Origin: an uncultured bacterium
Lineage (GTDB): Bacteria; Patescibacteriota; Minisyncoccia; UBA6257; 2-01-FULL-56-20
Length of the DNA: 64,000 bases
Assembly: GCA_963844965.1 (NCBI GenBank)
Contig: CAWJQC010000009.1
Span: forward strand, 62,037-126,036
Direction: 5' to 3'
Shown piece by piece: positions 5,068 through 59,800 of this stretch (its first letter is position 1; each line of letters begins with the position of its first letter). A model generated the notes under the pieces. That model was given only the letters and a program-made list of their open reading frames with translations, did no database searches and was not told the DNA's origin. The translations under genes were made by a program, and so were the position numbers.

Positions 5068-5297
5068 GGATTGACTTCCTCCTTTGGGGCTTCGGCCAAG
5101 CCCTCGCGGGTTAATCGTAGCGCCTCCTCGTAGGGTATGCGGCGCAATTTTCCGAGCTTCACGCTTCTTATCTTCTGGCTTTTAATCCACCGGTTAATGG
5201 TCGCTATGCTGACGGAAAGCTGACGGGCGAGTTCCTTTGTTTTCCACGCGCGCTCCACAAAGTATTCGTTGTAGCTCATGGTATAATTATACTCCAT
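5013..5297 (-). CDS. excisionase-family HTH DNA-binding protein (second copy)
   Basis: WKTKELARQLSVSIATINRWIKSQKIRSVKLGKLRRI. It overlaps the previous ORF by 55 nt, so the downstream gene probably uses a later start. Confidence 0.5.
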   Translation of the reverse strand: MEYNYTMSYNEYFVERAWKTKELARQLSVSIATINRWIKSQKIRSVKLGKLRRIPYEEALRLTREGLAEAPKEEVNPWTETKRLLSNALGRPEI

Positions 5298-5369
5298 GCG
5301 AGCATCATCTTATCCCCATCCACATCCACAACGCTTTACTTTAGCCCACAGATTGCTATTATTCAAATC

Positions 5370-5957
5370 ATGGCAGAGCCAATATCGCAGGAGAAGGAGG
5401 TTGTTTACATCAATTATTTTGACGGAATTGATATGGAAAGGGTGCGCCTCTTGATGGGCGTTTGCACACAAATTTTAGGCCAACTCAAACCAAAAACTTT
5501 ATATTTTCTTTTCGCATCTCCTGGGGGACAGGTGGATGCAGGTATCGCTTTGTATAATTTTCTTAAAGCCATTCCTCCAAAAATCGTGATGCACAATATG
5601 AGTTCGGTGGATTCAATTGGAACTGTAGTTTTTCTTGCTGGGGATGAACGATACGCCTCTCCAAACACCACTTTCCTTTTCCATGGTGTGAGTACTCAAT
5701 TCCAGAAAGAAGCTGCCCTTAATTTAAGTCAAATCAAAGAAATAGAAAGCCGGCTCTCGGAAGACCAAAATAAAATAGCTGGTATCATTGCTGACAACAG
5801 CCAAATTACAAAAGAAGAGGTGCAAAGGTTATTCGCTCAAGGAGAAACTAAATCCTTGGACTTCGCCAAGCAAAAAGGGTTCATCACTGACATTAAATCC
5901 CTCCGCCTCTCTCACGAGGATGTTCTTATCAATGTTGGTTTCCAAAGTAAGGGATAG
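5370..5957 (+). CDS. ClpP-family (S14) serine peptidase-like protein
   Basis: 195 aa. LYFLFASPGGQVDAGIALYNFLKAIPPKIVMHNMSSVDSIGTVVFLAGDERYASPNTTFLFHGVS parallels the ClpP core (NSPGG...catalytic Ser...His). It is divergently transcribed from the HTH genes. Confidence 0.6.
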   Translation: MAEPISQEKEVVYINYFDGIDMERVRLLMGVCTQILGQLKPKTLYFLFASPGGQVDAGIALYNFLKAIPPKIVMHNMSSVDSIGTVVFLAGDERYASPNTTFLFHGVSTQFQKEAALNLSQIKEIESRLSEDQNKIAGIIADNSQITKEEVQRLFAQGETKSLDFAKQKGFITDIKSLRLSHEDVLINVGFQSKG

Positions 5958-6300
5958 CTTTTCCCGTTCTAAATAGGGAAATCCCGCATAGAAGTAATTG
6001 GTGTCAGACAACTTTTTTTCTTTTTCCGGCATAGTCATGTACCCAGTATACCAAATCTCCACAACGGTGCAAATGCGTCCACGGTTTTAATTTAATTGCG
6101 CTAATTACTGAAAAAACGATAGCAAACTCCATGTATTGTCTGGATACTTATCGTCTCGTTATATATGTTATTATCCCCTATACTGGCGCAATCTACCTCC
6201 TCAAATATGCCCGTAGAATAAGTCCCATTATTATCGTGAATGGTATTATACATAATTGTGTTTGCATCAAAAATACCATCGCCATTATTTTGAATATTGT

Positions 6301-8118
6301 TTAGCAGTACCTTGTCGCCGTCAAAAATTCCCGCATAATGGCGGCCTGTCCCACCGGACCCATCGGGAGCTTGCCATATACATACCCGCCTTTAGCTGAA
6401 TTTTGAATTGTTAAATATTGAATTGTGCTGTTTTTTGCCCCCACTACTGTATTCCCGGTATTACTACCGTCTATTATTGTTTTATTTTCATCTTCTCCGT
6501 AAATACTAACTCCATCTTTTAGCACAACATTTTCATAATAAGTACCGTCGGCTATTTTAATATTATCTCCGCTTTGAGCGGCGTTTATTGCCGCTTGAAT
6601 TGTTGGATAATCGGCTGGCACATTAATGACATTTTGCAATTGCGTAGAAAAAGATTTTTGATCGCTCGTAGCCGTATTACCACTTTTATCAGAAGCGTTT
6701 ATTTTATAATTATAAATTGTCCCCGGTAATAATCCTGTAACAGAAATACTGTGGCTCGTTGAAAGCGTGGAATCAGATAATACTAATACGTCATAATCTC
6801 CAAAGGGAGAATATGATAATTGGATGGTACTGGGTTCGTCTGTTGTGAGTGAAATCACCGCAGAATTTGTGGTTGTATTAGATGATTGGATATTAGATAT
6901 TACGGGTGGCATGCTATCGCAAGAGGTCGTCTCGTCAGGTTTTCCAGTAGTAATTCCACAATGCATCAAATCGTTGCAGGTTCGTGTTTGTTGAGAATTT
7001 GCACAAGTGCTCCATGAGCCACATTGCCAGTTAGGAGTACACGTACATGATTGCGTCAAAGCCGGTTCTCCGGTTGAAACGCCGCAACTGTTTGAATCGT
7101 TGCAGGTTCGTGTTTGCATAGAATTCAAGCAGGTGTTCCAATTTGTGCATTGCCAATTTGGGGTACAATTAACCGTTGTTGAACAACTGGTAGTTTGAGT
7201 TTGCCCGCCAAAATTAACAGTAAGATTGGCTGTTTTAGTACCTGCTTGAGAAAAAGAATTTGAACAGCTTGATTTAGACCCAACACAATCACCAGTCCAA
7301 GAATAAATATAAGTACCAGTTCCTCCTAAAATTGCGACAGAGGAAGAAAATGTTACCGATTGGTTTGTTTGGTATGAGTTTGAATTTGCCGAACAAGAAA
7401 CGGAAAGCGTTGCTGTGGGCGGAGTGCACGATTGAGTTAAAATTGGCTCTCCGGTTGCAACTCCACAATTATTTGAATTGCTACAAGTCCTCATTTGTTG
7501 GGAATTTGCACAAGTGCTCCATGAGCCACATTGCCAATTTGGAGTACATGCTGGTGGCGTAGTATTTTGTTGAATTTGCTGAAGCGTTTGATTTGTTTGC
7601 TGTTGGGCCGCTAACTGTTTTTGCAACAAGGCAACCTGCTGCAGAAGTGCGCTCAATTGCGACTGCAGTGAATTATTAATGTCATTCGTAGTTGCGGGCG
7701 GCGTTGGAGTTGGCGGCGTTGAACTGGTTTCCGCAATCGCCTGCGCGTTGGATGCCGAAAGCTGTTGCGACAATATCGCGTTTGCTGCCGTTCTTGTGAG
7801 CGGCCCGAAATATCCCGCGGGTGGCGTTATGTCTTGAGTAGTTTGGAATTGCTTGACCCCCGCGAGCGTCAAAGAAAAGAAATTGCCGCTGATTGGGCCG
7901 GAATATACGCCTTGAGATGTAAGAAATTCTTGGAGCTTGGTAACGTCGGAATCGCCCTGTATGCCGAAATATAAATCTTTTGTGAATAAGGTTTGCGCCT
8001 TGACCACTGGAATACCAAAGGAAGCCACGAGAAGAACTGCGATAACAAATTTTTTCATATTCATTTTCATTGTTTTCATGGCACTCTTTTTTCTAACGAA
8101 CAACATTAACCATCGCAC
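6301..8118 (-). CDS. secreted cell-surface protein: signal peptide, peptidoglycan-binding-like domain, Q-rich coiled coil, 4 tandem Cys-rich modules, right-handed beta-helix C-terminus; C-terminus probably extends to about 6060 through a frameshift
   Basis: The likely start is the internal MKKFVIAVLLVASF signal peptide. LQEFLTSQGVYSGPISGNFFSLTLAGVKQFQ is a PG-binding-like motif. CTPNWQC(G/T)(S/N)W(S/N)TC.NS.Q.RTC repeats four times. In another frame, rc of 6060..6300 reads NNIQNNGDGIFDANTIMYNTIHDNNGTYSTGIF, which is more beta-helix repeats. The N-terminal 200 aa are paralogous to 42233..44319. Confidence 0.6.
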   Translation of the reverse strand: MRWLMLFVRKKSAMKTMKMNMKKFVIAVLLVASFGIPVVKAQTLFTKDLYFGIQGDSDVTKLQEFLTSQGVYSGPISGNFFSLTLAGVKQFQTTQDITPPAGYFGPLTRTAANAILSQQLSASNAQAIAETSSTPPTPTPPATTNDINNSLQSQLSALLQQVALLQKQLAAQQQTNQTLQQIQQNTTPPACTPNWQCGSWSTCANSQQMRTCSNSNNCGVATGEPILTQSCTPPTATLSVSCSANSNSYQTNQSVTFSSSVAILGGTGTYIYSWTGDCVGSKSSCSNSFSQAGTKTANLTVNFGGQTQTTSCSTTVNCTPNWQCTNWNTCLNSMQTRTCNDSNSCGVSTGEPALTQSCTCTPNWQCGSWSTCANSQQTRTCNDLMHCGITTGKPDETTSCDSMPPVISNIQSSNTTTNSAVISLTTDEPSTIQLSYSPFGDYDVLVLSDSTLSTSHSISVTGLLPGTIYNYKINASDKSGNTATSDQKSFSTQLQNVINVPADYPTIQAAINAAQSGDNIKIADGTYYENVVLKDGVSIYGEDENKTIIDGSNTGNTVVGAKNSTIQYLTIQNSAKGGYVYGKLPMGPVGQAAIMREFLTATRYC

Positions 8119-8296
8119 AATCTCCTTCGTAACACTTTAGAAGGTCTAATATACTGCCTGCAGGGTTGTTGCTGTAAATATCGGATGTTGTTTTATAAAT
8201 CTTTTCCAACTGCGAGGAAATGCGAAACAGTAAAACAATCGCCACTATCAGCAAAGCGACTATTACCCATAGGGGGCTCGTAGATTTTAAATCCAT
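8093..8296 (-). CDS. small hypothetical membrane protein
   Basis: 67 aa with one hydrophobic helix (WVIVALLIVAIVLLF). Weak call. Confidence 0.25.
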   Translation of the reverse strand: MDLKSTSPLWVIVALLIVAIVLLFRISSQLEKIYKTTSDIYSNNPAGSILDLLKCYEGDCAMVNVVR

Positions 8297-22914: not shown

Positions 22915-23008
22915 TTATTGAGCTTGGCACTATGCGAACTTGTCGAAAAAAGGTCGGGGAAAAATCTTGTTCGTGATAGACGATAATGAAATCTCTTGAG
23001 CGAAATTA

Positions 23009-23051
23009 GCCGCCAACGAAAATAAAAAACTGTTGGCGGCTTTTCGTTTTT
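23009..23051 (+). terminator. rho-independent terminator (also lies 3' of the minus-strand defense operon)
   Basis: GCCGCCAAC gaaaataaaaaactg TTGGCGGC TTTTCGTTTTT. Confidence 0.5.
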
Positions 23052-23071
23052 ATAAGGCGGGGAGGCGCGCT

Positions 23072-23461
23072 TTATTCTTTGGGAAAAGATTCCTTCACGA
23101 TAATGTCGTTCTTCTCGTATGGCCCAGAACTGGGCGGCTCAATTTCATTGCAGAGCTTAGTCTTGCCATGATTATTATACAAACCAAACTCTATATCCAA
23201 TCTATTGTTCTCATCTGAAACCTTGGCGTATCTATAATATGGCGACCTGCCACTTTTAAAAACCTTGTCTTTTATGCACTTATTGTTTTTATAATGATCT
23301 GATAATCTGTCCTTTATTAAGTCCTGACCGACATAAACAGGGAATCTCTTGTCTGTTTCTAGATTGCGGTAGCCAATCAAATAAACTCCATCAAAATTTA
23401 GATTGGCAAAATTGTCATCATTAAATTTTTTTGGACCAGACCAAGTAACGGTGAACTCCAT
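23072..23461 (-). CDS. hypothetical protein with GIY-YIG-like motif, last gene of the lexA-hsd operon
   Basis: DGVYLIGYRNLETDKRFPVYVGQDLIKDRLSDH fits GIY-(10-11)-YIG followed by R and H. It is separated from hsdS by 1 nt. Confidence 0.4.
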   Translation of the reverse strand: MEFTVTWSGPKKFNDDNFANLNFDGVYLIGYRNLETDKRFPVYVGQDLIKDRLSDHYKNNKCIKDKVFKSGRSPYYRYAKVSDENNRLDIEFGLYNNHGKTKLCNEIEPPSSGPYEKNDIIVKESFPKE

Positions 23462-23462
23462 C

Positions 23463-24833
23463 TTATTTTTTACTCTCTATCATTTCTTCGACCTTTAGCT
23501 TGGCTTCTTCTAATAATTCTTTTGCTTTTTTGCGGGCGGCGTGAGATTCGCGAATAAGTTCGGCGATTTTTTGCTGGGTTGGTTTGGGCAAAATTGGAAT
23601 TACAATATTCTCAACATCTTGATCGGTAATAGTTGGATAAGATGTGCCCGTTGTTGGTTTTTCCATTTGCAACTTACCGATGACGGACCGCAAAACAACC
23701 TGTAGATATTCGCGCGTCGGAGACGGGACTTCAAAAACCGAGAAGGCGCCACTCGCAACAAAGTTTTTGCTCCAGCTATCGGGCACGATTGCGATGGCAC
23801 CACGAGTGGGTCGAACTTTTGAAATCAACAGCTCGCCCCCGACAATTTTAATCTTGGCATTTGCGGGCAACTCTTTACCCAAGATCAAGTTACTAGAAAT
23901 TGCTCCGTTTCCAACGTTAACGTCGCTAATCTCGATATATTCGTATTGGACATCGGGCGCAAGCCCTGCCCGCCTTGCTGTTCGCTTAGCAATTTTGCCA
24001 AGAGGTTTTACATTTTCCCCCAAGAGTTTTATTAACTTTTGATACTTCGGCTGGAAAAATTCGGCGTCAATGCGATTCGCTTTTTTTGCTTCGGACAAAT
24101 TAACCACGCTCCATAATTCATTTTCCGATTCAAAATTCTTAAGCCCCAATTCTTCCAAAAGTAAATTTTCTGCTTGAGAGTATAGGGCATTTGCTTGATC
24201 CAAAGTGTTCTTGGCCCCAATCACCACATTGTTGATATCTTTGACGAATGCTTCTGATGGAATCGGATAAATCAAATCATAAACATCCTGGACATTTAAT
24301 TTGGGTTGAGCGTTCCCGCTAATTCTCCTCATAATCTGAGCAAAACCAAACCTAGAATTTAGAAAGGTTAACAGAAATATTTTTTGCTCCGGCATCACTT
24401 TCGAGTTTTTGAACTTGATACCGATGTTATTCTCACTTATATTACAAACTTCAAATTCTTCTGGCACGGCAGATACAATACCAATCGTGTTGCCAACTTT
24501 AGACATTATCAAGTCGAAGGGAGAAAGCTGAGATTGCTTTAGTCGGTCATTGTCCTTTTTTGAAATATATATGAGCTCGGTTTTATCAAGAAAAAAGTTT
24601 TGCAAATCAGAAATTCTCAAAAAAGGAATACCACTACTTACATAGGCACTACTTTTTAACGAGGAGCCGAAAGGGCCACTAACAACAACAGCGCTTTCTT
24701 TTAAGGTTTGTGTTCCGCCAGAAAATGATTTTATTTCGTTTATTAATTTCAAATACTCCGGCTGATAATATTCCGCATCCAGCCGGTACGCACCCTCCAG
24801 TTGAGATTTTTGGATGATAGAATAACTAACCAT
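23463..24833 (-). CDS. hsdS: type I restriction-modification specificity subunit HsdS (two target-recognition domains)
   Basis: 456 aa. The conserved RLDAEYYQPEY and IDAEFFQPKYQ repeats flank two variable TRDs. Confidence 0.85.
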   Translation of the reverse strand: MVSYSIIQKSQLEGAYRLDAEYYQPEYLKLINEIKSFSGGTQTLKESAVVVSGPFGSSLKSSAYVSSGIPFLRISDLQNFFLDKTELIYISKKDNDRLKQSQLSPFDLIMSKVGNTIGIVSAVPEEFEVCNISENNIGIKFKNSKVMPEQKIFLLTFLNSRFGFAQIMRRISGNAQPKLNVQDVYDLIYPIPSEAFVKDINNVVIGAKNTLDQANALYSQAENLLLEELGLKNFESENELWSVVNLSEAKKANRIDAEFFQPKYQKLIKLLGENVKPLGKIAKRTARRAGLAPDVQYEYIEISDVNVGNGAISSNLILGKELPANAKIKIVGGELLISKVRPTRGAIAIVPDSWSKNFVASGAFSVFEVPSPTREYLQVVLRSVIGKLQMEKPTTGTSYPTITDQDVENIVIPILPKPTQQKIAELIRESHAARKKAKELLEEAKLKVEEMIESKK

Positions 24834-25487
24834 TTATTTTCTATTCTCTTTTTTGAATTTAACCAGCTTGGCCATTATTGAATCATTTAAAACTATAGCT
24901 TTTTCAATAAATCTTTCGCAAAGCCTTATCTCTTTTCGCATTGTTTCCAGCCACGTCTTTTTGGTTAAAGATTTTTTTGATATTGGCCTAAAACTCCTGT
25001 CATAACCAGAAACAGCGGTGTCATAATAAATACGGTGAGTTAACATCTTTCGCTTTACTAATATCTCATGCATAACTTTGTCTTCGTTGAATTTCTCTAG
25101 ATCTTTTTTAACCGAAGATTTTCTGACCATAGAATCTTCAGTAAGTTTATTGAATAAAGAAGCTTTTTCTGAAAATTGCAGATCAAGAGAGGCGTTTATA
25201 AGTTGGCAAATTTTTTCCCTATACGAAAACGCTCTCAACCAAAAATTTTCCAGGTGGTAGCCCAGGGATTCAAAATCAGTTTCCTGATGAATCGGTGATA
25301 GCCAGCCCTTGCCTGTCATAATTATTTTCGCAGTCCTTTCACAAAGCAGGTACGTCCTGGCTGCCCTACTATAAACGTCAATCAAATCGGATATTTCTTG
25401 ACGGACCTCATTGTGATAGGCTTTCGCTTTCTTGGGAAACAATCGCCTATCAAAATCAAAAAATGGTTGCCCTTTTGTTTTTTTCAT
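24834..25487 (-). CDS. hypothetical protein inserted between hsdM and hsdS; HEPN-like Rx4H motif (candidate Abi-type effector)
   Basis: 217 aa. KRKMLTHRIYYD contains R-x4-H. Its position between hsdM and hsdS is typical of embedded defense genes such as PrrC or Abi. No protein-level match is recognised. Confidence 0.4.
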   Translation of the reverse strand: MKKTKGQPFFDFDRRLFPKKAKAYHNEVRQEISDLIDVYSRAARTYLLCERTAKIIMTGKGWLSPIHQETDFESLGYHLENFWLRAFSYREKICQLINASLDLQFSEKASLFNKLTEDSMVRKSSVKKDLEKFNEDKVMHEILVKRKMLTHRIYYDTAVSGYDRSFRPISKKSLTKKTWLETMRKEIRLCERFIEKAIVLNDSIMAKLVKFKKENRK

Positions 25488-25498
25488 TATTTTTTATC

Positions 25499-26806
25499 TC
25501 AAAAATCGAATTTTTGTTCCTTGGTAAATTTCACGAATGCCTCGGCGATTTCGTCCAAGTCGTGGTCAAGCACCTTACGGCCTTTAGAGCCGTGCACATA
25601 ACTACCGTTCGCGTCTTTTTTATAAATATAGTCACCAGAATTATCTTTGCTACCTTTTTTAGAGACCGCCATGAAAATTGGATAATCCTTTTGCGGTTTG
25701 CCAGTGTCGCCGCCCCATTTTTGTAAAAAGAGCACGCTTGTTTTTGTGCCGGTATGCGGCTTGAACGTGTTACCGTGAAGCCCGACGACGGCAAGAATAC
25801 GCGCTTTTTCAAAAAGCCACTCACGGATATATTCCATGTTGGTGTTGTTAAGCACGCCTTGCGGCAGAACGATTGCCAAGCGGCCGCCGGGACGGAGCAT
25901 GTCCAATGCGCGTTCAATAAATAAAATGTGTCGCTCAACGTTATTGCGAAGCTTACCTCCTTCTTTTTTTGCCAGTTCGTACTGGCGCAGAAGTCCCTGC
26001 TCCGGATTTTCTCCGGCGAAGGGCGGATTCGTGAGCAATATATCAAAATTCAAATGCCGATAGGTCAGATGATTTTCCTTGTCGCTTTCGCTATTATCCA
26101 AGGTTTGCAACAGAGGTTTAAGCGCCACGCGTGCTTCTTCCGCCTCCGGACCAGTCCACTCCCGCGAATCCAACGAATCACGTTTGAAAATATGGTGCTT
26201 GCCATCGCCAGCGATAAGCATTAATGCCTGCGATATCCGGCGCATGTTGTCGTCAAAGTCAATGCCAAAAAGATATTTTGCGGCGTAGGATTTTTTCGCC
26301 GCTTCGGTTTTTGAAAAATTGTCCCAGACATGATACATCGCGTGAAGGAGGAATCCGCCAGAGCCGCATGCCGGATCTACCACGTATTCGTTTTCTTTCG
26401 GGCTGAGCATCTTTACGCACATTTTAATGACATGCCGCGGCGTGAAATACTGCCCCTTTTTTCCCTTAGAAACTTCGGTGATGAGATGCTCAAACGCTCC
26501 ATCCACAATCTCGTATTCGCCCTGCCCAAGCTCAAATAAGCGAATATTTTCCACGAACGGCACGCAGATGTTAAGGCGTGCGGCGGTAAGCTTGATTTTA
26601 TCCGATGGTTCGAATGTGTCGGGCCACTCCTTGACCGCTTCCTTAAAAAGCCCGTTTACAACCTCGTAGGTTTTTTCGGCGTCTTTATATCTTCTAAACA
26701 ACACCTCCCTACTTTCCCTTTCTCGGATAGCCATTTGCTCATCGTAGAGCTTGGCGTAAATAAGCTTGAAGATTCTCTTCAAAAACATTACCGCCGGAGC
26801 CGGCAA
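25499..26806 (-). CDS. hsdM: type I restriction-modification N6-adenine DNA methyltransferase HsdM
   Basis: The protein is 435 aa. It has the AdoMet motif VVDPACGSGGFL and the catalytic motif LLTNPPFAG. Confidence 0.9.
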   Translation of the reverse strand: MPAPAVMFLKRIFKLIYAKLYDEQMAIRERESREVLFRRYKDAEKTYEVVNGLFKEAVKEWPDTFEPSDKIKLTAARLNICVPFVENIRLFELGQGEYEIVDGAFEHLITEVSKGKKGQYFTPRHVIKMCVKMLSPKENEYVVDPACGSGGFLLHAMYHVWDNFSKTEAAKKSYAAKYLFGIDFDDNMRRISQALMLIAGDGKHHIFKRDSLDSREWTGPEAEEARVALKPLLQTLDNSESDKENHLTYRHLNFDILLTNPPFAGENPEQGLLRQYELAKKEGGKLRNNVERHILFIERALDMLRPGGRLAIVLPQGVLNNTNMEYIREWLFEKARILAVVGLHGNTFKPHTGTKTSVLFLQKWGGDTGKPQKDYPIFMAVSKKGSKDNSGDYIYKKDANGSYVHGSKGRKVLDHDLDEIAEAFVKFTKEQKFDF

Positions 26807-51844: not shown

Positions 51845-52336
51845 TTATGCTTTTTGCAAGCCTTCAAAGTCGGCGAAAACAGTTTCCACCTTGACCGAGC
51901 GCGGAAGCTTACCGCGCAGGAATTTTTTCGCGGCGCGGAGATATTTGGCGTGTTGTTTTCTTTCAATTTTCGGGTCGTTTTCAAACGCTTTAAGCCCTCC
52001 GTAGGCGCCGCAGTCGCTGTGGGTCATAAGAATAATTCGTCTTGTCGCGTGAACTTCGATCGATACCAAAATCTGCCTCAACACAAATTCGCGATCGACT
52101 TCATCGCCCCGAGGCCCGAGGGTCTTAGCCCCACCGGCGCATTTTATCTCATCAACCCGTTTGTATCCTCTCGCCTTCACCAAGCGGACAAGTACCGGTC
52201 TCCAACCATCGTCAAAACACCAAACAACGGCTGCGTTGGCCACGTAATGCTCGCCCAATTTCCGCGATGGCTTCGCTTTCAAGATAACTTTAGGCATTGC
52301 TCGTTCCCCCTTCTTCAATAATGAATTTCGCGTCAT
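51845..52336 (-). CDS. hypothetical protein
   Basis: 163-aa ORF. The weak, non-canonical beta-carbonic-anhydrase-like residues (WCFDDGWR, HSDCGAYGG) are not assigned. Confidence 0.3.
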   Translation of the reverse strand: MTRNSLLKKGERAMPKVILKAKPSRKLGEHYVANAAVVWCFDDGWRPVLVRLVKARGYKRVDEIKCAGGAKTLGPRGDEVDREFVLRQILVSIEVHATRRIILMTHSDCGAYGGLKAFENDPKIERKQHAKYLRAAKKFLRGKLPRSVKVETVFADFEGLQKA

Positions 52337-52547
52337 TCAAACGGACCTCCAAAAATCCGGAGCTTACAGGAATATAATGCTCTTTCCCCGAATTATCAAT
52401 GATTTTCATAATCCCCTCTTTCAAAACCGAAACCAGCGGCTCGTGGTCGTCCAAAACAGTGATCTCGCCGCTCTCGGTCTTGCAGTTCACTGACTGCGCT
52501 TCACCTTGGAAGAGAATCTTTTTTAAGGAATAAATGCCCAAACGCAT
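52290..52547 (-). CDS. atpC: F-type ATP synthase epsilon subunit
   Basis: 85 aa. LDDHEPLVSVLKEGIMKI...VSSGFLEV has the beta-sandwich pattern of epsilon. It sits directly downstream of atpD. Confidence 0.75.
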   Translation of the reverse strand: MRLGIYSLKKILFQGEAQSVNCKTESGEITVLDDHEPLVSVLKEGIMKIIDNSGKEHYIPVSSGFLEVRLNDAKFIIEEGGTSNA

Positions 52548-52636
52548 AAGAATTTCTAATATCTAATTTCTAATTGACCCAATCAAATCCGGTTGGCTAT
52601 TAATTAGAAATTAGGTTAATTAGGTTAATTAAAAAT

Positions 52637-54987
<2,351 letters not shown>

Positions 54988-55025
54988 AAAAAAATAATTT
55001 ACTAATTTACCAAGTTGTGCGAATG

Positions 55026-55502
55026 CTATTTTTTCTTAGTGATAAATCCATAAAGATTTCTAAGATATCCTCGATCTTGCCCAAAGGACATCTTTTTGCT
55101 TAATCCAAGAAACTTTATTATTTCCTTATCAGATTTGCCAGCTTCGCGCATTTTCCTTGTAATCTTAATTATATTTATCTGATCATATTTAGATTTCTTA
55201 TAAAGATTTACAATTCCCAAAATCACACAACCCATTCCGGAATGTTTAATTAGATTGCACATTCCACAAATTGTCTGCAGGTTTTTTTGTTTGTTATTAT
55301 TGGGATTGCCATCAATATGATCAACGATTTGCCCTTTGAAACTTTGGAAGCCGCAATACTGGCAGGTATACTCATCGCGATCTAAGATTTTCAACCGTAA
55401 AGATTTCCATTCCTTAAAATTCAATTTTTTCTTCTCTTCTTGATTGCGCCACGTTCTCGGAGGTGCAAATGAAGGAAAAAAGTTTTTGTTATTACTCGCC
55501 AT
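55026..55502 (-). CDS. HNH endonuclease inserted between atpA and atpG
   Basis: CQYCG...IVDHIDGNPNNN..NLQTICGMCNLIKH is the HNH motif set. Same strand as the operon, and 13 and 38 nt from the neighbouring genes. Confidence 0.8.
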   Translation of the reverse strand: MASNNKNFFPSFAPPRTWRNQEEKKKLNFKEWKSLRLKILDRDEYTCQYCGFQSFKGQIVDHIDGNPNNNKQKNLQTICGMCNLIKHSGMGCVILGIVNLYKKSKYDQINIIKITRKMREAGKSDKEIIKFLGLSKKMSFGQDRGYLRNLYGFITKKK

Positions 55503-55516
55503 AGCGCCTTTTAAAT

Positions 55517-57040
55517 TTATTTCAAAAAGTGCGTGATTGCCGCTTTTAGTTTTTCTTCTATCTCCGGCGTCAGTTCCCCTTTTGTTTTTATCGGATTCAA
55601 AACGTCTTCGGCGTGGAATTTCTTCATATATTCAAGAAAGTCGGCTTCCGTTTTTTTCACCTCGTCCGCGGAAAATTTCTCAAAGTAGCCGTTCAAAACA
55701 GCGTAGAAAACGACGACCTGTTCCTCTACCGGCAACGGCGCTTGGTCCTCCTGTTTCAGGATTTCCATGATTATCTGCCCCTCGTGGATGCGCTTCTTCG
55801 TCGCTTCATCAACGTCGGAAGCGAATTGCACGAAAGCCCGCAGTTCGCGGAATTGCGCGAGTGATAGCCGCAATTTGCCGGCGACTTTTTTCATCGCTTT
55901 TGTCTGTGCCGCCGAGCCCACGCGCGAAACGGAAAGTCCGACATTCACCGCCGGCCGGATACCTTGATAGAACAGATCGGACTCCAGATATATTTGGCCA
56001 TCGGTGATTGAAATGATATTTGTAGGAATATACGCCGTGACGTCGCCGAGCTGAGTTTCCACGATGGGCAGTGCCGTGAGCGAGCCGCCGCCTTTTTCCT
56101 TGGACATTTTCGCGGCACGTTCCAAAAGACGGGAGTGCAGGTAGAAAATATCTCCAGGATACGCCTCACGGCCTGGTGGACGGCGCAAGAGCAAGGAAAT
56201 CTGTCTGTAAGCCCAAGCATGCTTTGATAAATCGTCATAAATCACAAGCGCGTCATCGCCTTTATCCCGAAAATATTCCCCTATTGCCGCTCCGGCGAAA
56301 GGCGCGAGATACCACAACGCCGCCGGCGACGAAGCGGACGCGGAAACGACAATTGTATATTTCAAAGAATCAAATTTTTTCAGCGTCTCCACGATCTTCG
56401 CCACCTTGGATTCCTTCTGGCCGACAGCGACGTAAATGCAAACCGGCAATTTTCTGGCTTTGTCAGAACCTTGGTTGATAATTGCGTCAAGCGCGAGGGC
56501 AGTTTTACCGGTCTGCCTGTCGCCAATGATAAGCTCGCGCTGGCCGCGGCCGATGGGAATCATGGAATCAATGGATTTCAAGCCAGTGTGAAGCGGCGTG
56601 GAAACCGGCTCGCGCTCAAGAACCGACGGCGCTCTGTTTTCAAGAAATACCCGCGTGGACTTTGAGCCAGCCGAGAAGATAGGGCCGCGGCCGTCAAGCG
56701 GATTGCCCAAGGGATCAACAACTCTTCCAAAAAGTCCGTCACCGACCTCAAGAGAAAGCACCTGTCCCGTTCCCTTCACCACGTCGCCGCTCGCGACCGC
56801 GCCAGCGTCATCCAACACCAAGGCACCCACGGTGTCTTCCTCAAGATTCAGAACAAGAGCCCGGCGTTCGCCTTCCGTAGTTTCTATAGTCAATATCTCC
56901 TGGCTAAGCGCTTTCGCGAGACCGGTAATTTTCACGATGCCGTCTCCCGCCTCGGTCACGCGGCCAATATCTTCCCACTTCGCGGAGTCCTTGTAACCCT
57001 CAATTTCCTTTTTTAATTTTTCTATAATATCAAAACTCAT
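55517..57040 (-). CDS. atpA: F-type ATP synthase alpha subunit
   Basis: The protein is 507 aa. The Walker A motif is GDRQTGKTAL. The sequence is typical of alpha subunits throughout. Confidence 0.95.
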   Translation of the reverse strand: MSFDIIEKLKKEIEGYKDSAKWEDIGRVTEAGDGIVKITGLAKALSQEILTIETTEGERRALVLNLEEDTVGALVLDDAGAVASGDVVKGTGQVLSLEVGDGLFGRVVDPLGNPLDGRGPIFSAGSKSTRVFLENRAPSVLEREPVSTPLHTGLKSIDSMIPIGRGQRELIIGDRQTGKTALALDAIINQGSDKARKLPVCIYVAVGQKESKVAKIVETLKKFDSLKYTIVVSASASSPAALWYLAPFAGAAIGEYFRDKGDDALVIYDDLSKHAWAYRQISLLLRRPPGREAYPGDIFYLHSRLLERAAKMSKEKGGGSLTALPIVETQLGDVTAYIPTNIISITDGQIYLESDLFYQGIRPAVNVGLSVSRVGSAAQTKAMKKVAGKLRLSLAQFRELRAFVQFASDVDEATKKRIHEGQIIMEILKQEDQAPLPVEEQVVVFYAVLNGYFEKFSADEVKKTEADFLEYMKKFHAEDVLNPIKTKGELTPEIEEKLKAAITHFLK

Positions 57041-57046
57041 ATGAGA

Positions 57047-57421
57047 TTACGCGAATATTTTTTGAAGCTTGCACGCGAGCGAACCGTCGTATTGCCGTTC
57101 GCCATCCTTTATAATTTTCACGCCCGCAACCACCGAGGATATTATCTTCTCTTCCAGAACATCCGTGGACCCCACAAGATTGTTGAACAAGCCACGCGCG
57201 TCTTTGAGCGGCCTAGCCGACTCAAACGTCCATTTGCTGCGGCTGCTCTGCTTCAGCAAAAATTTTTCGGCGAGGACCGAAATCTTCCCGATTTGGCGCA
57301 TGTCGCCGTTTTTCGCGATAAGCGCGAGAAAATTTTTTATCACAAACTCCTCGCGCTCTTCCGGAGTCCGCGCGGCTACCTCGGCGAATGCTTTGGCATA
57401 TGTTTGTGGGGAATATTTCAT
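57047..57421 (-). CDS. atpH: F-type ATP synthase delta (OSCP) subunit, short
   Basis: MKYSPQTYAKAFAEVAAR is a typical delta N-terminus. The C-terminal pattern is ...GVKIIKDGERQYDGSL. Its ATG is formed by the terminal GGGATG of the MITE-like element. Confidence 0.7.
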   Translation of the reverse strand: MKYSPQTYAKAFAEVAARTPEEREEFVIKNFLALIAKNGDMRQIGKISVLAEKFLLKQSSRSKWTFESARPLKDARGLFNNLVGSTDVLEEKIISSVVAGVKIIKDGERQYDGSLACKLQKIFA

Positions 57422-57542
57422 CCCGTTAGAAGCAGATCGCAATCGGCGACCTGCACAAAAATTTGTTTGATTTGCGATGATTGTTTATTCATTTATAAAA
57501 ATTTCATAATTATTCTAAGCGATCGCGGCTTCTAACGGGATT
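57419..57542. repeat. MITE-like element, family 2, copy 2, inserted exactly between atpF stop and atpH start
   Basis: catcccgttagaagcagatcgc ... gatcgcggcttctaacgggatt. The last nt is the first nt of the atpF TGA, and the first three nt are the complement of the atpH ATG. Confidence 0.6.
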
Positions 57543-58036
57543 CATATGACTTCTTTGATTGCCTTTTGTATCAAAGCATCATCAATCTTATCCGGTGAGA
57601 GTTCCACGGTCTTTATAATCGCGTCTTTCACTAGTTTTGCCGCTTCTTTTTTCATCAAGAGCCGCGACTCCTCCTCTTTACTCCGTAAAAGCACTTCGGT
57701 TCGCTTCAGCTCTTCGGTCTCCTTTCTCTTGGCTTCGGCCAGAAGTTCCGCCTCCGTTTTTTTCGCCCTTTCCTCCGTGGCACGGAGGATATTCGTGGCC
57801 TCTCCCTCGGCCTCCTTCAATTTCTCCTTGCCGATCTCTTCTATCTGGTTCAGCCGCTCGTCCGCTTCCTTGGCTTTGGCCAACCCTTCTTCAACCTTTG
57901 CCTTGCGCTCCTTCAGGATTCGAACAACCGGTTTATAAACGAAGAAACGTAAAATCAGAAGAAGTATCAAAAAATTGACCGCCTGGCTCGCAAGCGATCG
58001 CCAATCAATACCAAGTTGACTGATAAGATCACTCAT
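57542..58036 (-). CDS. atpF: F-type ATP synthase b subunit
   Basis: N-terminal TM helix followed by a long charged E/K-rich coiled coil. It sits between atpE and atpH. Confidence 0.8.
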   Translation of the reverse strand: MSDLISQLGIDWRSLASQAVNFLILLLILRFFVYKPVVRILKERKAKVEEGLAKAKEADERLNQIEEIGKEKLKEAEGEATNILRATEERAKKTEAELLAEAKRKETEELKRTEVLLRSKEEESRLLMKKEAAKLVKDAIIKTVELSPDKIDDALIQKAIKEVI

Positions 58037-58136
58037 TAGAACGCGATCCGAAACTACGAATATATCCTAATGCTCCGAATTGGTTTTTGGAATTTTATTC
58101 GGGTCATTCGGATGAAATTCGGATTTTTCGGATTGC

Positions 58137-58367
58137 TTACTTTACGAACTTGATAATCAGAGCGACGACCAGGGCATAAATGGCGATGGCTTCCGCGAAG
58201 GCGATTGCCAGAATCATCGCTGTCTGGATTTTCGGCGCCGCTTCTGGATTCCTGCCGATGGCGTCGGCCGACTTGGGACCGATGAGTCCGATCGCGACAG
58301 CCGGGGCGATCGTGCCCACAGTGATCACGGCCATCGTGGCCAGCAATCTTATTGATTCAATATCCAT
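58137..58367 (-). CDS. atpE: F-type ATP synthase c subunit
   Basis: 76-aa two-helix hairpin. GRNPEA loop. The proton-carrying E is in FAEAIAIYALVVAL. Confidence 0.9.
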   Translation of the reverse strand: MDIESIRLLATMAVITVGTIAPAVAIGLIGPKSADAIGRNPEAAPKIQTAMILAIAFAEAIAIYALVVALIIKFVK

Positions 58368-58599
58368 ACTTTAATTAATTTCTAATTTCTAACATCTAAA
58401 CGACCCTACGACCTTTTGTATTTAATCCTAATTTTCTATTTTCTGCTTAGTGCGCCGCCTCGTGCCCAGTAGTAGACCGAGCACTGCAACGCTCCCACGC
58501 TTTCTTCTGCTACAAACTTGGCACTGGCAAATTCTTTGTTATTTCTCATAATTATTGGTTTTGCCCTGTAGCGTTGTAGAAAATGATGTGCTCGGCTCA

Positions 58600-59331
58600 C
58601 TACTGGGCGTGTTCCGTCGTCGCTATCGCCACGAATACAAGCGCGAGCATTGAAAATATAAATGCCTGAATGAAACCAACAAAAATCTCCAGAAACAAAA
58701 ATGGCAGGGGTACAACGAACGGGACGAGAAAGGCGATGATCGTAAGAAGTACCTCGCCGGCAAACACATTCCCAAACAACCTGAACGAGAACGATATAAT
58801 CTTAGCAAATTCGGAAATAAGCTCAAGTATGCCGATGAAGAATTCGATCGGCCCTTTAAAGTTGAAAAATTTGGAAAGGTGCGCTTTCGCACCCACGACC
58901 GCTATGCCGATGATATTCACGGTGAAAACCGTTATTAGCGCCAAAGCCAGCGTGAAGTTCAGGTCGCTAGCCGGAGAACGCAGAAACGGCACGAATTCAC
59001 CATTTTCCCGCAATCCCAGGGACCCCACGCCGGGCAGAAGACCCAACCAGTTGGATGTGATAATGAAGAGAAAAATCGTGGCAATAAGCGGCAGGTACCT
59101 CTCCGATTTTTCGCGTTTTATGAGCACCGAATCCATAATGCCGAGCATTCCCTCTATGATCATTTCAACAACGTTCTGCATTTTGCCGGGAACCAGCGCG
59201 AGGCGACGCCGCAAGGAAACGGAAATAACGGTCAAAAGCAGAACTGCGAGCATGGCCATGAAGACCGTGTTCGTGACCGGAAAACTACCTATATGAAAAA
59301 TTGGCTCGGCGCGCAATGAAATGTGGAGCAT
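58600..59331 (-). CDS. atpB: F-type ATP synthase a subunit
   Basis: 243 aa, polytopic. The conserved Arg region is ...SFSFRLFGNVFAGEVLL. It is the first gene of the operon. Confidence 0.8.
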   Translation of the reverse strand: MLHISLRAEPIFHIGSFPVTNTVFMAMLAVLLLTVISVSLRRRLALVPGKMQNVVEMIIEGMLGIMDSVLIKREKSERYLPLIATIFLFIITSNWLGLLPGVGSLGLRENGEFVPFLRSPASDLNFTLALALITVFTVNIIGIAVVGAKAHLSKFFNFKGPIEFFIGILELISEFAKIISFSFRLFGNVFAGEVLLTIIAFLVPFVVPLPFLFLEIFVGFIQAFIFSMLALVFVAIATTEHAQ

Positions 59332-59370: not shown

Positions 59371-59800
59371 TTAAGCAATTGCGGCCAAATTTCCGTTTAG
59401 GCAAACAGCGTCCATGGCCTCGATCTCTTCCATATAAGGAAGCCCTGCGGGCATTCCATTCAATAAAAATATCTTTTTGTGATTTACGTATGCCTGCCCC
59501 ATTTCCATAAGAACGTTGCCGCCGATATAATTTTTGACGCCATTCTTGTTGTGGTTAACGATAAGAACTGCGTCGCTTGCCAGGATGTTTTTGTAATGGT
59601 CGTGAAAATAATTCCTTTCTCTCTTAATGGCGGCTTCTTCGCCCTTGCGCCAGCGGTCAATGATATCCGCTTTGTCGCCGCGGGCGAACGCTTCATAGTC
59701 TGGATGAATCCAGCCGTCATAACCCAGAGCGCACAATTGATCTTTACAATTGACCATTTCCTTATAGAAATGACTGCTGCCGAGAACATAGATTCTTCAT
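59371..59800 (-). CDS. hypothetical Rossmann-like protein (nucleoside 2-deoxyribosyltransferase-like?); start region frameshifted
   Basis: ORF 59371..59757, with upstream frame RIYVLGSSHFYKEM. Deleting one A from atgaagaatc gives ATG AGA ATC = MRIYVLGSS. Confidence 0.35.

Follow-up and report, generated by a model that had tools for sequence, protein, structure and literature searches.

The F1Fo ATP synthase operon studied here carries a gene for a predicted HNH nuclease between atpA and atpG, and we put at about 0.55 the probability that this gene was acquired recently as a passenger, lies in a hot spot for cargo genes that extends across the lineage, is expressed by read-through with the operon and was not placed there by atp-specific homing. 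Unrelated small genes, accessory or selfish, appear to have landed repeatedly in the atpA-atpG junction in this lineage, and the atpG-atpD and atpD-atpC junctions are used in the same way to a lesser extent. Because the junction recurrently receives unrelated small genes, we regard the HNH gene as one cargo among many and not as a product of atp-specific homing. The gene is of an ordinary kind, a stray HNH nuclease gene gained horizontally, and it is conceivable that the HNH nuclease itself opened the break through which its own gene entered.

The window, that is the whole stretch of 64,000 nucleotides that was analysed, contains the complete F1Fo operon with its insertion at positions 52290..59331 of the minus strand according to the ORF list, and tblastn gave the same order in relatives. 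All the genes lie on the minus strand. The ORF list places atpB at 58600..59331, atpE at 58137..58367, atpF at 57542..58036, atpH at 57047..57442 and atpC at 52290..52547. The insertion is flanked upstream by atpA (55517..57040), which encodes F1 alpha and shows the Pfam ATP-synt_ab, _N and _C domains, and downstream by atpG (54010..54987), which encodes F1 gamma (Pfam ATP-synt, 259 bits), followed by atpD (52637..54004), which also has a strong Pfam match. Both flanking ORFs are intact and the insert sits exactly in the intergenic gap, so that the order atpB-E-F-H-A-HNH-G-D-C is canonical apart from the HNH gene. The downstream synteny of atpC, Pro_CA_2-like, Pur_DNA_glyco and EndoIII genes is also common to the window and the relatives. 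Since the gene order within the operon and downstream is that of the relatives, the insertion is not associated with rearrangement, and the suggestion of the first-pass annotation that the HNH gene was the source of mobility for adjacent rearrangements is not supported.

Two observations concern the ends of the flanking genes. The public protein record for AtpG (P0122) has 312 aa and is 13 residues short of the 325-aa ORF (start region 54949-54987); we favour the 325-aa ORF, and with it the 38-nt spacer given below, because all relatives start with MES.Q..K.R. At 39 nt upstream of atpB there is an ORF of 128 aa (59371-59757, minus strand) without a Pfam match, whose homologue (32% identity, E 5e-18) is a cargo ORF at 5106-5564 between atpG and atpD in the relative L025; it belongs to another small gene family tied to atp operons at differing positions.

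The HNH ORF (55026..55502, minus strand) begins with ATG and encodes a protein of 158 aa that matches the Pfam HNH profile and has homologues. It is oriented like the atp operon and is separated by 14 nt from the atpA stop (55503..55516) and by 38 nt from the atpG start (54988..55025). The first-pass annotation had described a co-directional 158-aa HNH gene with these spacers between atpA and atpG, and the ORF, spacer and Pfam data bear this out. The HNH profile PF01844 scores 24.9 bits over residues 47-88 against a gathering cut-off of 21.4 bits, and HNH families of the PHROG collection match residues ~17-90 at E 1.5e-15 to 1e-10. No frameshift and no internal stop are found within the ORF. 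We take it to be a real gene and not a chance ORF because it has more than 200 homologues (E 1e-53 to 1e-61) and keeps 44 invariant columns. An independent Logan assembly of run SRR18214601 contains a contig of 1161 nt that corresponds to window positions 54684..55844 with 99.9% identity and spans both junctions of the HNH gene; therefore the arrangement is not an assembly chimera. A second HNH copy was searched for in the 64-kb window and none was found, so the check for other copies that the first-pass annotation had proposed yielded nothing further within the window.

Compared with the 'empty' junctions of relatives, the extra segment covers positions 54988..55516 (minus strand) and measures 529 nt, consisting of the 14-nt spacer, the 477-nt ORF and the 38-nt spacer; its GC profile is AT-rich. 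The 'empty' atpA-atpG spacers of relatives measure between -1 and 31 nt, which is the usual state in Paceibacteria, so the DNA added here amounts to ~0.5 kb, the ORF plus almost nothing. The HNH ORF has a GC content of 33.5% (GC3 35%), against 45-55% (GC3 55-69%) for the atp genes and 52% for atpA and atpG, and it is the lowest-GC stretch of 477 nt in the window. The difference from its flanks is 15-19 points, whereas 55 family members elsewhere differ from theirs by -0.006 +/- 0.038; the copy in the window is thus a GC outlier within its family, since the other members match their flanks. By composition and spacing, the HNH gene appears to be foreign and recently inserted into a normally tight junction.

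The boundaries of the insert were searched for signs of a mobile element. Direct or inverted flanking repeats and a target-site duplication were represented only by short AT-rich matches at chance level, no transposase or integrase is present in the 529-nt insert, and there is no space in it for a further gene. A transposon, an insertion sequence and an integron cassette were accordingly rejected on the grounds of the chance-level repeats and the lack of a transposase or integrase. An Rfam scan of the insert, its surroundings and the long spacers of relatives gave no structured RNA, intron or riboswitch family at threshold. Between the HNH gene and atpG we found no terminator-like site, and the 3' spacer of the HNH gene has no stable fold (z-score 0.74). 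The search for an internal promoter gave one weak sigma-70-like match inside the ORF, and the region is no richer in promoter-like sites than shuffled sequence. As the HNH gene is co-oriented and no terminator-like site precedes atpG, it is reasonable to infer that atpGDC would be transcribed by read-through across the HNH gene.

Other low-GC stretches occur in the window. A second low-GC island on the minus strand (22960-25500) carries, by sequence reading, an ORF like a type I restriction specificity subunit (23463..24833, 456 aa) and small ORFs at 23072..23461 and 24834..25487, and a methylase-like ORF (25499..26806) adjoins it. The low-GC stretch at ~6060-8260 holds a secreted-looking protein of 605 aa (6301-8118, minus strand), rich in Thr, Ser, Asn and Gln and with repeated Cys-containing modules; here the low GC reflects the compositional bias of the protein and is not obviously a sign of foreign DNA.

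Comparison with the atp operon loci of relatives (L008-L087 and L168-L171) revealed no member of the HNH family in any of ~84 loci, comprising 80 species-representative Paceibacteria/Patescibacteria loci and the nearest metagenomic relatives. The first-pass annotation had proposed comparing the atpA-atpG junction across relatives and had named conservation of the HNH ORF at this position as a domesticated gene as the finding that would speak against it; the HNH gene is missing in all of them. The best AtpG match in the species-representative genome collection is 64% identical, so that the 'empty' sites come from other species. In the closest relative (L168, AtpG 87% identical) the same atpA-atpG gap is occupied by a 132-aa NUDIX gene with a GC content of 37.6% against 54%, and a PDDEXK_3 gene with a GC content of 34% lies between atpD and atpC. 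In the next (L169, AtpG 72%) a LigT-like gene precedes atpG, with a GC content of 37% against 50%, and in L170 (AtpG 69%) the junction is empty, with a spacer of 9 nt. At the start of the L169 contig (1-340) just the last ~30 atpA codons are recognisable before the LigT-like gene and the sequence at the contig start is not atpA-like; this could be a truncated atpA remnant or an assembly problem. No convincing boundary motif was shared among the cargo of the window, L168, L169 and L170, and the sequences of the window and L168 resemble each other only weakly in the ~25 nt that precede atpG. The 5' end of atpG (ATGGAATC..T.CAAAA..TAAAACG.CGC) is near-invariant in DNA among relatives in the junction alignments.

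In the Paceibacteria survey, inserts longer than 300 nt were present at atpA-atpG in 14 of 75 loci, at atpG-atpD in 9 of 79 and at atpD-atpC in 5 of 66, and the four Fo/delta junctions combined gave 5 in 258. A Fisher test of atpA-atpG against the Fo/delta junctions of the same survey gave p about 1e-6, a value that is approximate, as are all these hot-spot statistics, because the survey loci are phylogenetically non-independent. The cargo identified by Pfam is diverse: PDDEXK_3 (one scanned and three by BLASTP similarity), 23S_rRNA_IVP, SET (two), NYN (two), an MNT and HEPN pair, a DUF433 and DUF5615 pair, NUDIX (two), DinB, DUF1653 and a LigT-like protein. Examples are found at L168:561-959, L168:3527-3910, L169:335-943, L015:2649-3964, L014:2997-3488, L059:2065-2457 and L059:6523-7047. 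Most cargo ORFs run in the direction of the operon and the majority of inserts lie below their flanks in GC, and the PDDEXK_3 copies at differing junctions of differing genomes share 55-62% identity with one another. We found nothing in the literature on atp-operon insertions in CPR.

The long spacers between atpA and atpG in Staskawiczbacteria-like loci (L014:2615-4001, L019:3332-4001, L038:3483-4001 and L052:2775-4001) have blocks of 34-122 nt in common, with 74-92% identity; one block occurs twice within L014, and none has an Rfam match. A conserved non-coding RNA and a small repeated element are both possible explanations of these blocks. In two further loci (L035:3886-4001 and L041:3886-4001) the atpA-atpG spacer of 114 nt is 92% conserved and self-complementary, with a palindrome at positions 33-94.

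The HNH protein contains the motif string CQYC...VDHIDGNPNNN...NLQTICGMCNLIKH. Its zinc site is formed by two CxxC pairs (C47 and C50; C79 and C82) and its beta-beta-alpha-Me motif by H62, N74, N83 and H87. In an alignment of 53 sequences C47, C50, H62, N74, C79, C82 and H87 are invariant, and all are present here, while N83 is nearly invariant; an alignment of 14 sequences has 44 invariant columns, and the window protein keeps every invariant column of both alignments. The AF2 model has a pLDDT of 90.3 and a complete two-domain fold, in which strands 59-62 and 75-78 followed by helix 80-86 form the beta-hairpin plus helix. Foldseek matches of this model include the HNH domains of Cas9, Cas5-HNH, Cap5 and McrA, whereas for its C-terminal alpha/beta domain (residues ~95-155) the only similar structure is the corresponding end of DotN. 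We predict from these features that the ORF encodes an intact zinc-finger HNH (beta-beta-alpha-Me) nuclease with a DotN/IcmJ-like architecture.

The homologues are 55-64% identical to the window protein, the closest one being 64% identical, and most have 170-200 aa. Their hosts are DPANN archaea, Bathyarchaeia, Heimdallarchaeota and Parcubacteria. Clustering at 50% leaves ~45 representatives with E <= 1e-30, which indicates that the family is compact and strongly conserved. The window protein ends in GFITKKK and is without the variable C-terminal tail of ~25 aa of most family members, and one complete member (L122, 157 aa) is equally short. No confirmed match to the family was found in IMG/VR contigs, which were searched with a viral origin in mind.

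DotN/IcmJ of Legionella pneumophila, a protein adaptor and subunit of the type IVB secretion coupling complex, is the protein of known structure most like the HNH protein. It gives the best sequence match among solved structures (PDB 5x1h, 5x42 and 6sz9; E 8e-15, residues ~9-87) and, with both domains taken into account, also the best match in fold (Foldseek E 1e-6, TM 0.5-0.59 query-normalised, 25-30% identity). Both proteins have an N-terminal 'A.P..WR' motif and a CxxC zinc site. DotN has VNLDG where the HNH family has the invariant VDHIDG, and because of this replacement it is without the catalytic His. The equivalog IcmJ_DotN_IVB (NF038221) is the top NCBIfam match of the HNH protein, over residues 11-83, but its 57.5 bits are below the cut-off of 100 bits. 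There are no Dot/Icm type IVB secretion genes near the HNH ORF, the neighbours of which are the atp genes. Since the NCBIfam score is below the cut-off, secretion genes are missing and VDHIDG is kept, we consider the HNH protein a cousin of DotN with intact catalytic residues and not DotN itself. Nothing linking DotN with HNH was found in the literature.

A context survey of 83 loci with HNH family members showed no atp genes in any of them. The family genes usually lie in tight co-oriented operons, but their neighbours vary greatly, and 117 of the 156 clusters of neighbouring genes are singletons. Recurrent neighbours are a PolB-exonuclease-like gene (19 loci), SWIM, with a match to the PADLOC candidate PDC-S62 (10), type I restriction HsdR (6), AAA_14/DUF4143 ATPases (6) and ParB_N (6), and AbiEi/AbiEii, WYL and PRiA4_ORF3 also occur. 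Judged by these gene neighbourhoods, the setting of the family elsewhere appears to be defence-island or mobilome-like. In three loci (L090:4998-5552, L100:4998-5564 and L144:2733-3275) the family member lies directly upstream of hsdR in a type I R-M operon, and in the pair L090 and L144 the HNH proteins share 63% identity but the neighbouring HsdR proteins only 29%. A PADLOC-DB search with the HNH protein gave similarity at the level of the HNH core only (ZorE 33.7 bits, PtuB 22 bits), and no partner genes were found in the window. A known anti-phage defence system was rejected, as there is neither a full-length match to a PADLOC component nor an adjacent partner gene.

Among known mobile nucleases, the phage free-standing HNH homing endonucleases (T4 MobE, PMC2790892; I-HmuI, PDB 1u3e) are likewise small, co-oriented, foreign and sporadic genes between conserved genes. 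Unlike them, the gene described here has an essential cellular operon as its host, its family does not recur at the site, and there is no confirmed viral contig; in addition, the fold similarity of the HNH model to I-HmuI is negligible (Foldseek probability 0.08). The terminase-associated HNH protein of GVE2 (PDB 5h0m; PMC5304195) aligns in the HNH core at E 7.5e-6, but for this protein, as for the PHROG HNH families, the catalytic core alone matches, the C-terminal domain differs, and the window has no terminase or phage context at this place. Parallels in arrangement come from the atp junctions of the relatives, where the PDDEXK_3 'GxxExxY' and 23S_rRNA_IVP (23S rRNA intervening sequences) genes are likewise single small low-GC co-oriented ORFs; their proteins differ from HNH in fold. 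At core-gene-flanked integration hot spots, differing accessory genes occupy one site between the same conserved genes in related genomes. The site described here is unlike such hot spots in that it lies inside an essential operon, receives one to three small cargo genes and has no integrase or tRNA.

Four other explanations of the arrangement were weighed. The first-pass annotation had proposed selfish homing into a conserved essential operon, which would make the gene a free-standing homing endonuclease gene in intron-less homing, its HNH product cutting the 3' end of atpA or the 5' end of atpG in genomes without it and repair copying the gene in. We consider this unlikely. The HNH motif is intact, the insert is compact (~0.5 kb), co-oriented and exactly between two conserved genes, its composition is strongly foreign, it occurs sporadically, relatives of other species keeping an intact empty site with a spacer of -1 to 31 nt, the near-invariant atpG 5' DNA would suit as a target, and the family is widespread in archaea and CPR with very variable neighbourhoods. 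The evidence against classical homing is stronger: this is the sole atp-associated case (0 of 83 family loci with atp genes, 0 of ~84 related atp loci with the family), non-nuclease genes fill the same gap in the nearest relatives, members elsewhere match the GC of their hosts and lie in tight operons, and the family has no confirmed match in viral contigs and a negligible fold match to I-HmuI. Its unusual conservation (~60% identity, 30-44 invariant columns) is also atypical of homing endonuclease genes, which decay fast. The proposal thus survives in part: a foreign, recent gene in a normally tight junction is what the GC content and the relatives' spacers indicate, and read-through into atpGDC is a reasonable inference, while site-specific homing finds no support in the 83 family loci, none of which has atp genes, or in the non-nuclease cargo of the same gap.

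According to a second explanation, which seems quite doubtful to us, the gene came in as a fragment, lost its C-terminal tail and usual partners, and survives as a decaying, non-functional remnant heading for deletion. Most relatives are ~25 aa longer and usually lie in operons with partners, whereas this gene stands alone, and its composition shows no drift toward the host. Against this, the ORF has neither frameshift nor internal stop, no invariant or catalytic residue has been lost, the tail that it lacks is variable and of low conservation and is equally missing from the L122 member (157 aa), and AF2 gives a complete two-domain fold at pLDDT 90. An intact ORF that is tightly spaced and oriented like the operon would also be expected of a domesticated gene conserved at this junction in the lineage, with a role tied to ATP synthase. 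This explanation is refuted by the absence of the family from related atp loci, the gene being missing at atpA-atpG in all 75 relatives of the survey, among them the ones whose AtpG is 87%, 72% and 69% identical, and the GC3 of 35% against ~60% for the operon also speaks against it; we give it hardly any credence. The sharp compositional break could suggest an artefact of assembly or binning that joined foreign low-GC DNA into the operon, which we regard as extremely improbable, since the independent Logan contig spans the end of atpA, the HNH gene and the start of atpG at 99.9% identity and the insert is precisely intergenic, with both flanking ORFs intact.

The explanation that we prefer, a passenger gene in a recurrently used junction, may be described as follows. 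A low-GC donor would have supplied a fragment of ~0.5 kb with the HNH gene by horizontal transfer, and the fragment would have lodged as a single-gene passenger at the atpA-atpG junction of a Paceibacteria (Parcubacteria/CPR) F1Fo operon. Entry may have occurred by illegitimate recombination or by recombination aided by the conserved homology of the atpA 3' and atpG 5' ends. The insert could have persisted because, being co-oriented and terminator-less, it would be transcribed with the operon and would not cut off atpGDC. Judging by the settings in which its relatives occur, an action on DNA in genetic conflict or defence is most likely for the protein, and it probably has no role in ATP synthase. 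A more far-reaching reading, which we advance only as a speculation that is probably wrong as a whole, would see in the F1 junctions of Paceibacteria a landing pad dedicated to mobile cassettes of one gene each, in many cases a nuclease gene (DotN-like HNH, PDDEXK_3, NYN and PIN/HEPN modules), which would spread between lineages by nuclease-induced breaks and repair via the conserved atp flanks. The DotN-like HNH would then be both mobile and active as a nuclease, and it would represent the ancestor type, still catalytically live, of Legionella DotN.

Two findings beyond the gene itself bear on the biology of the family and of its hosts. The family is common to DPANN archaea and CPR bacteria, tightly conserved and unstudied, which makes it a candidate conflict or defence nuclease, and as a relative of the Legionella adaptor DotN that retains the catalytic residues it offers a hint at the origin of DotN. 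For the organisms, an essential and normally compact operon repeatedly tolerates foreign genes at its F1 junctions across a genome-reduced lineage, and seems to collect them. This cargo bears on gene uptake and expression in ultrasmall genomes, and the F1 junction could serve as a 'safe harbour' site provided by nature, should these organisms become tractable.
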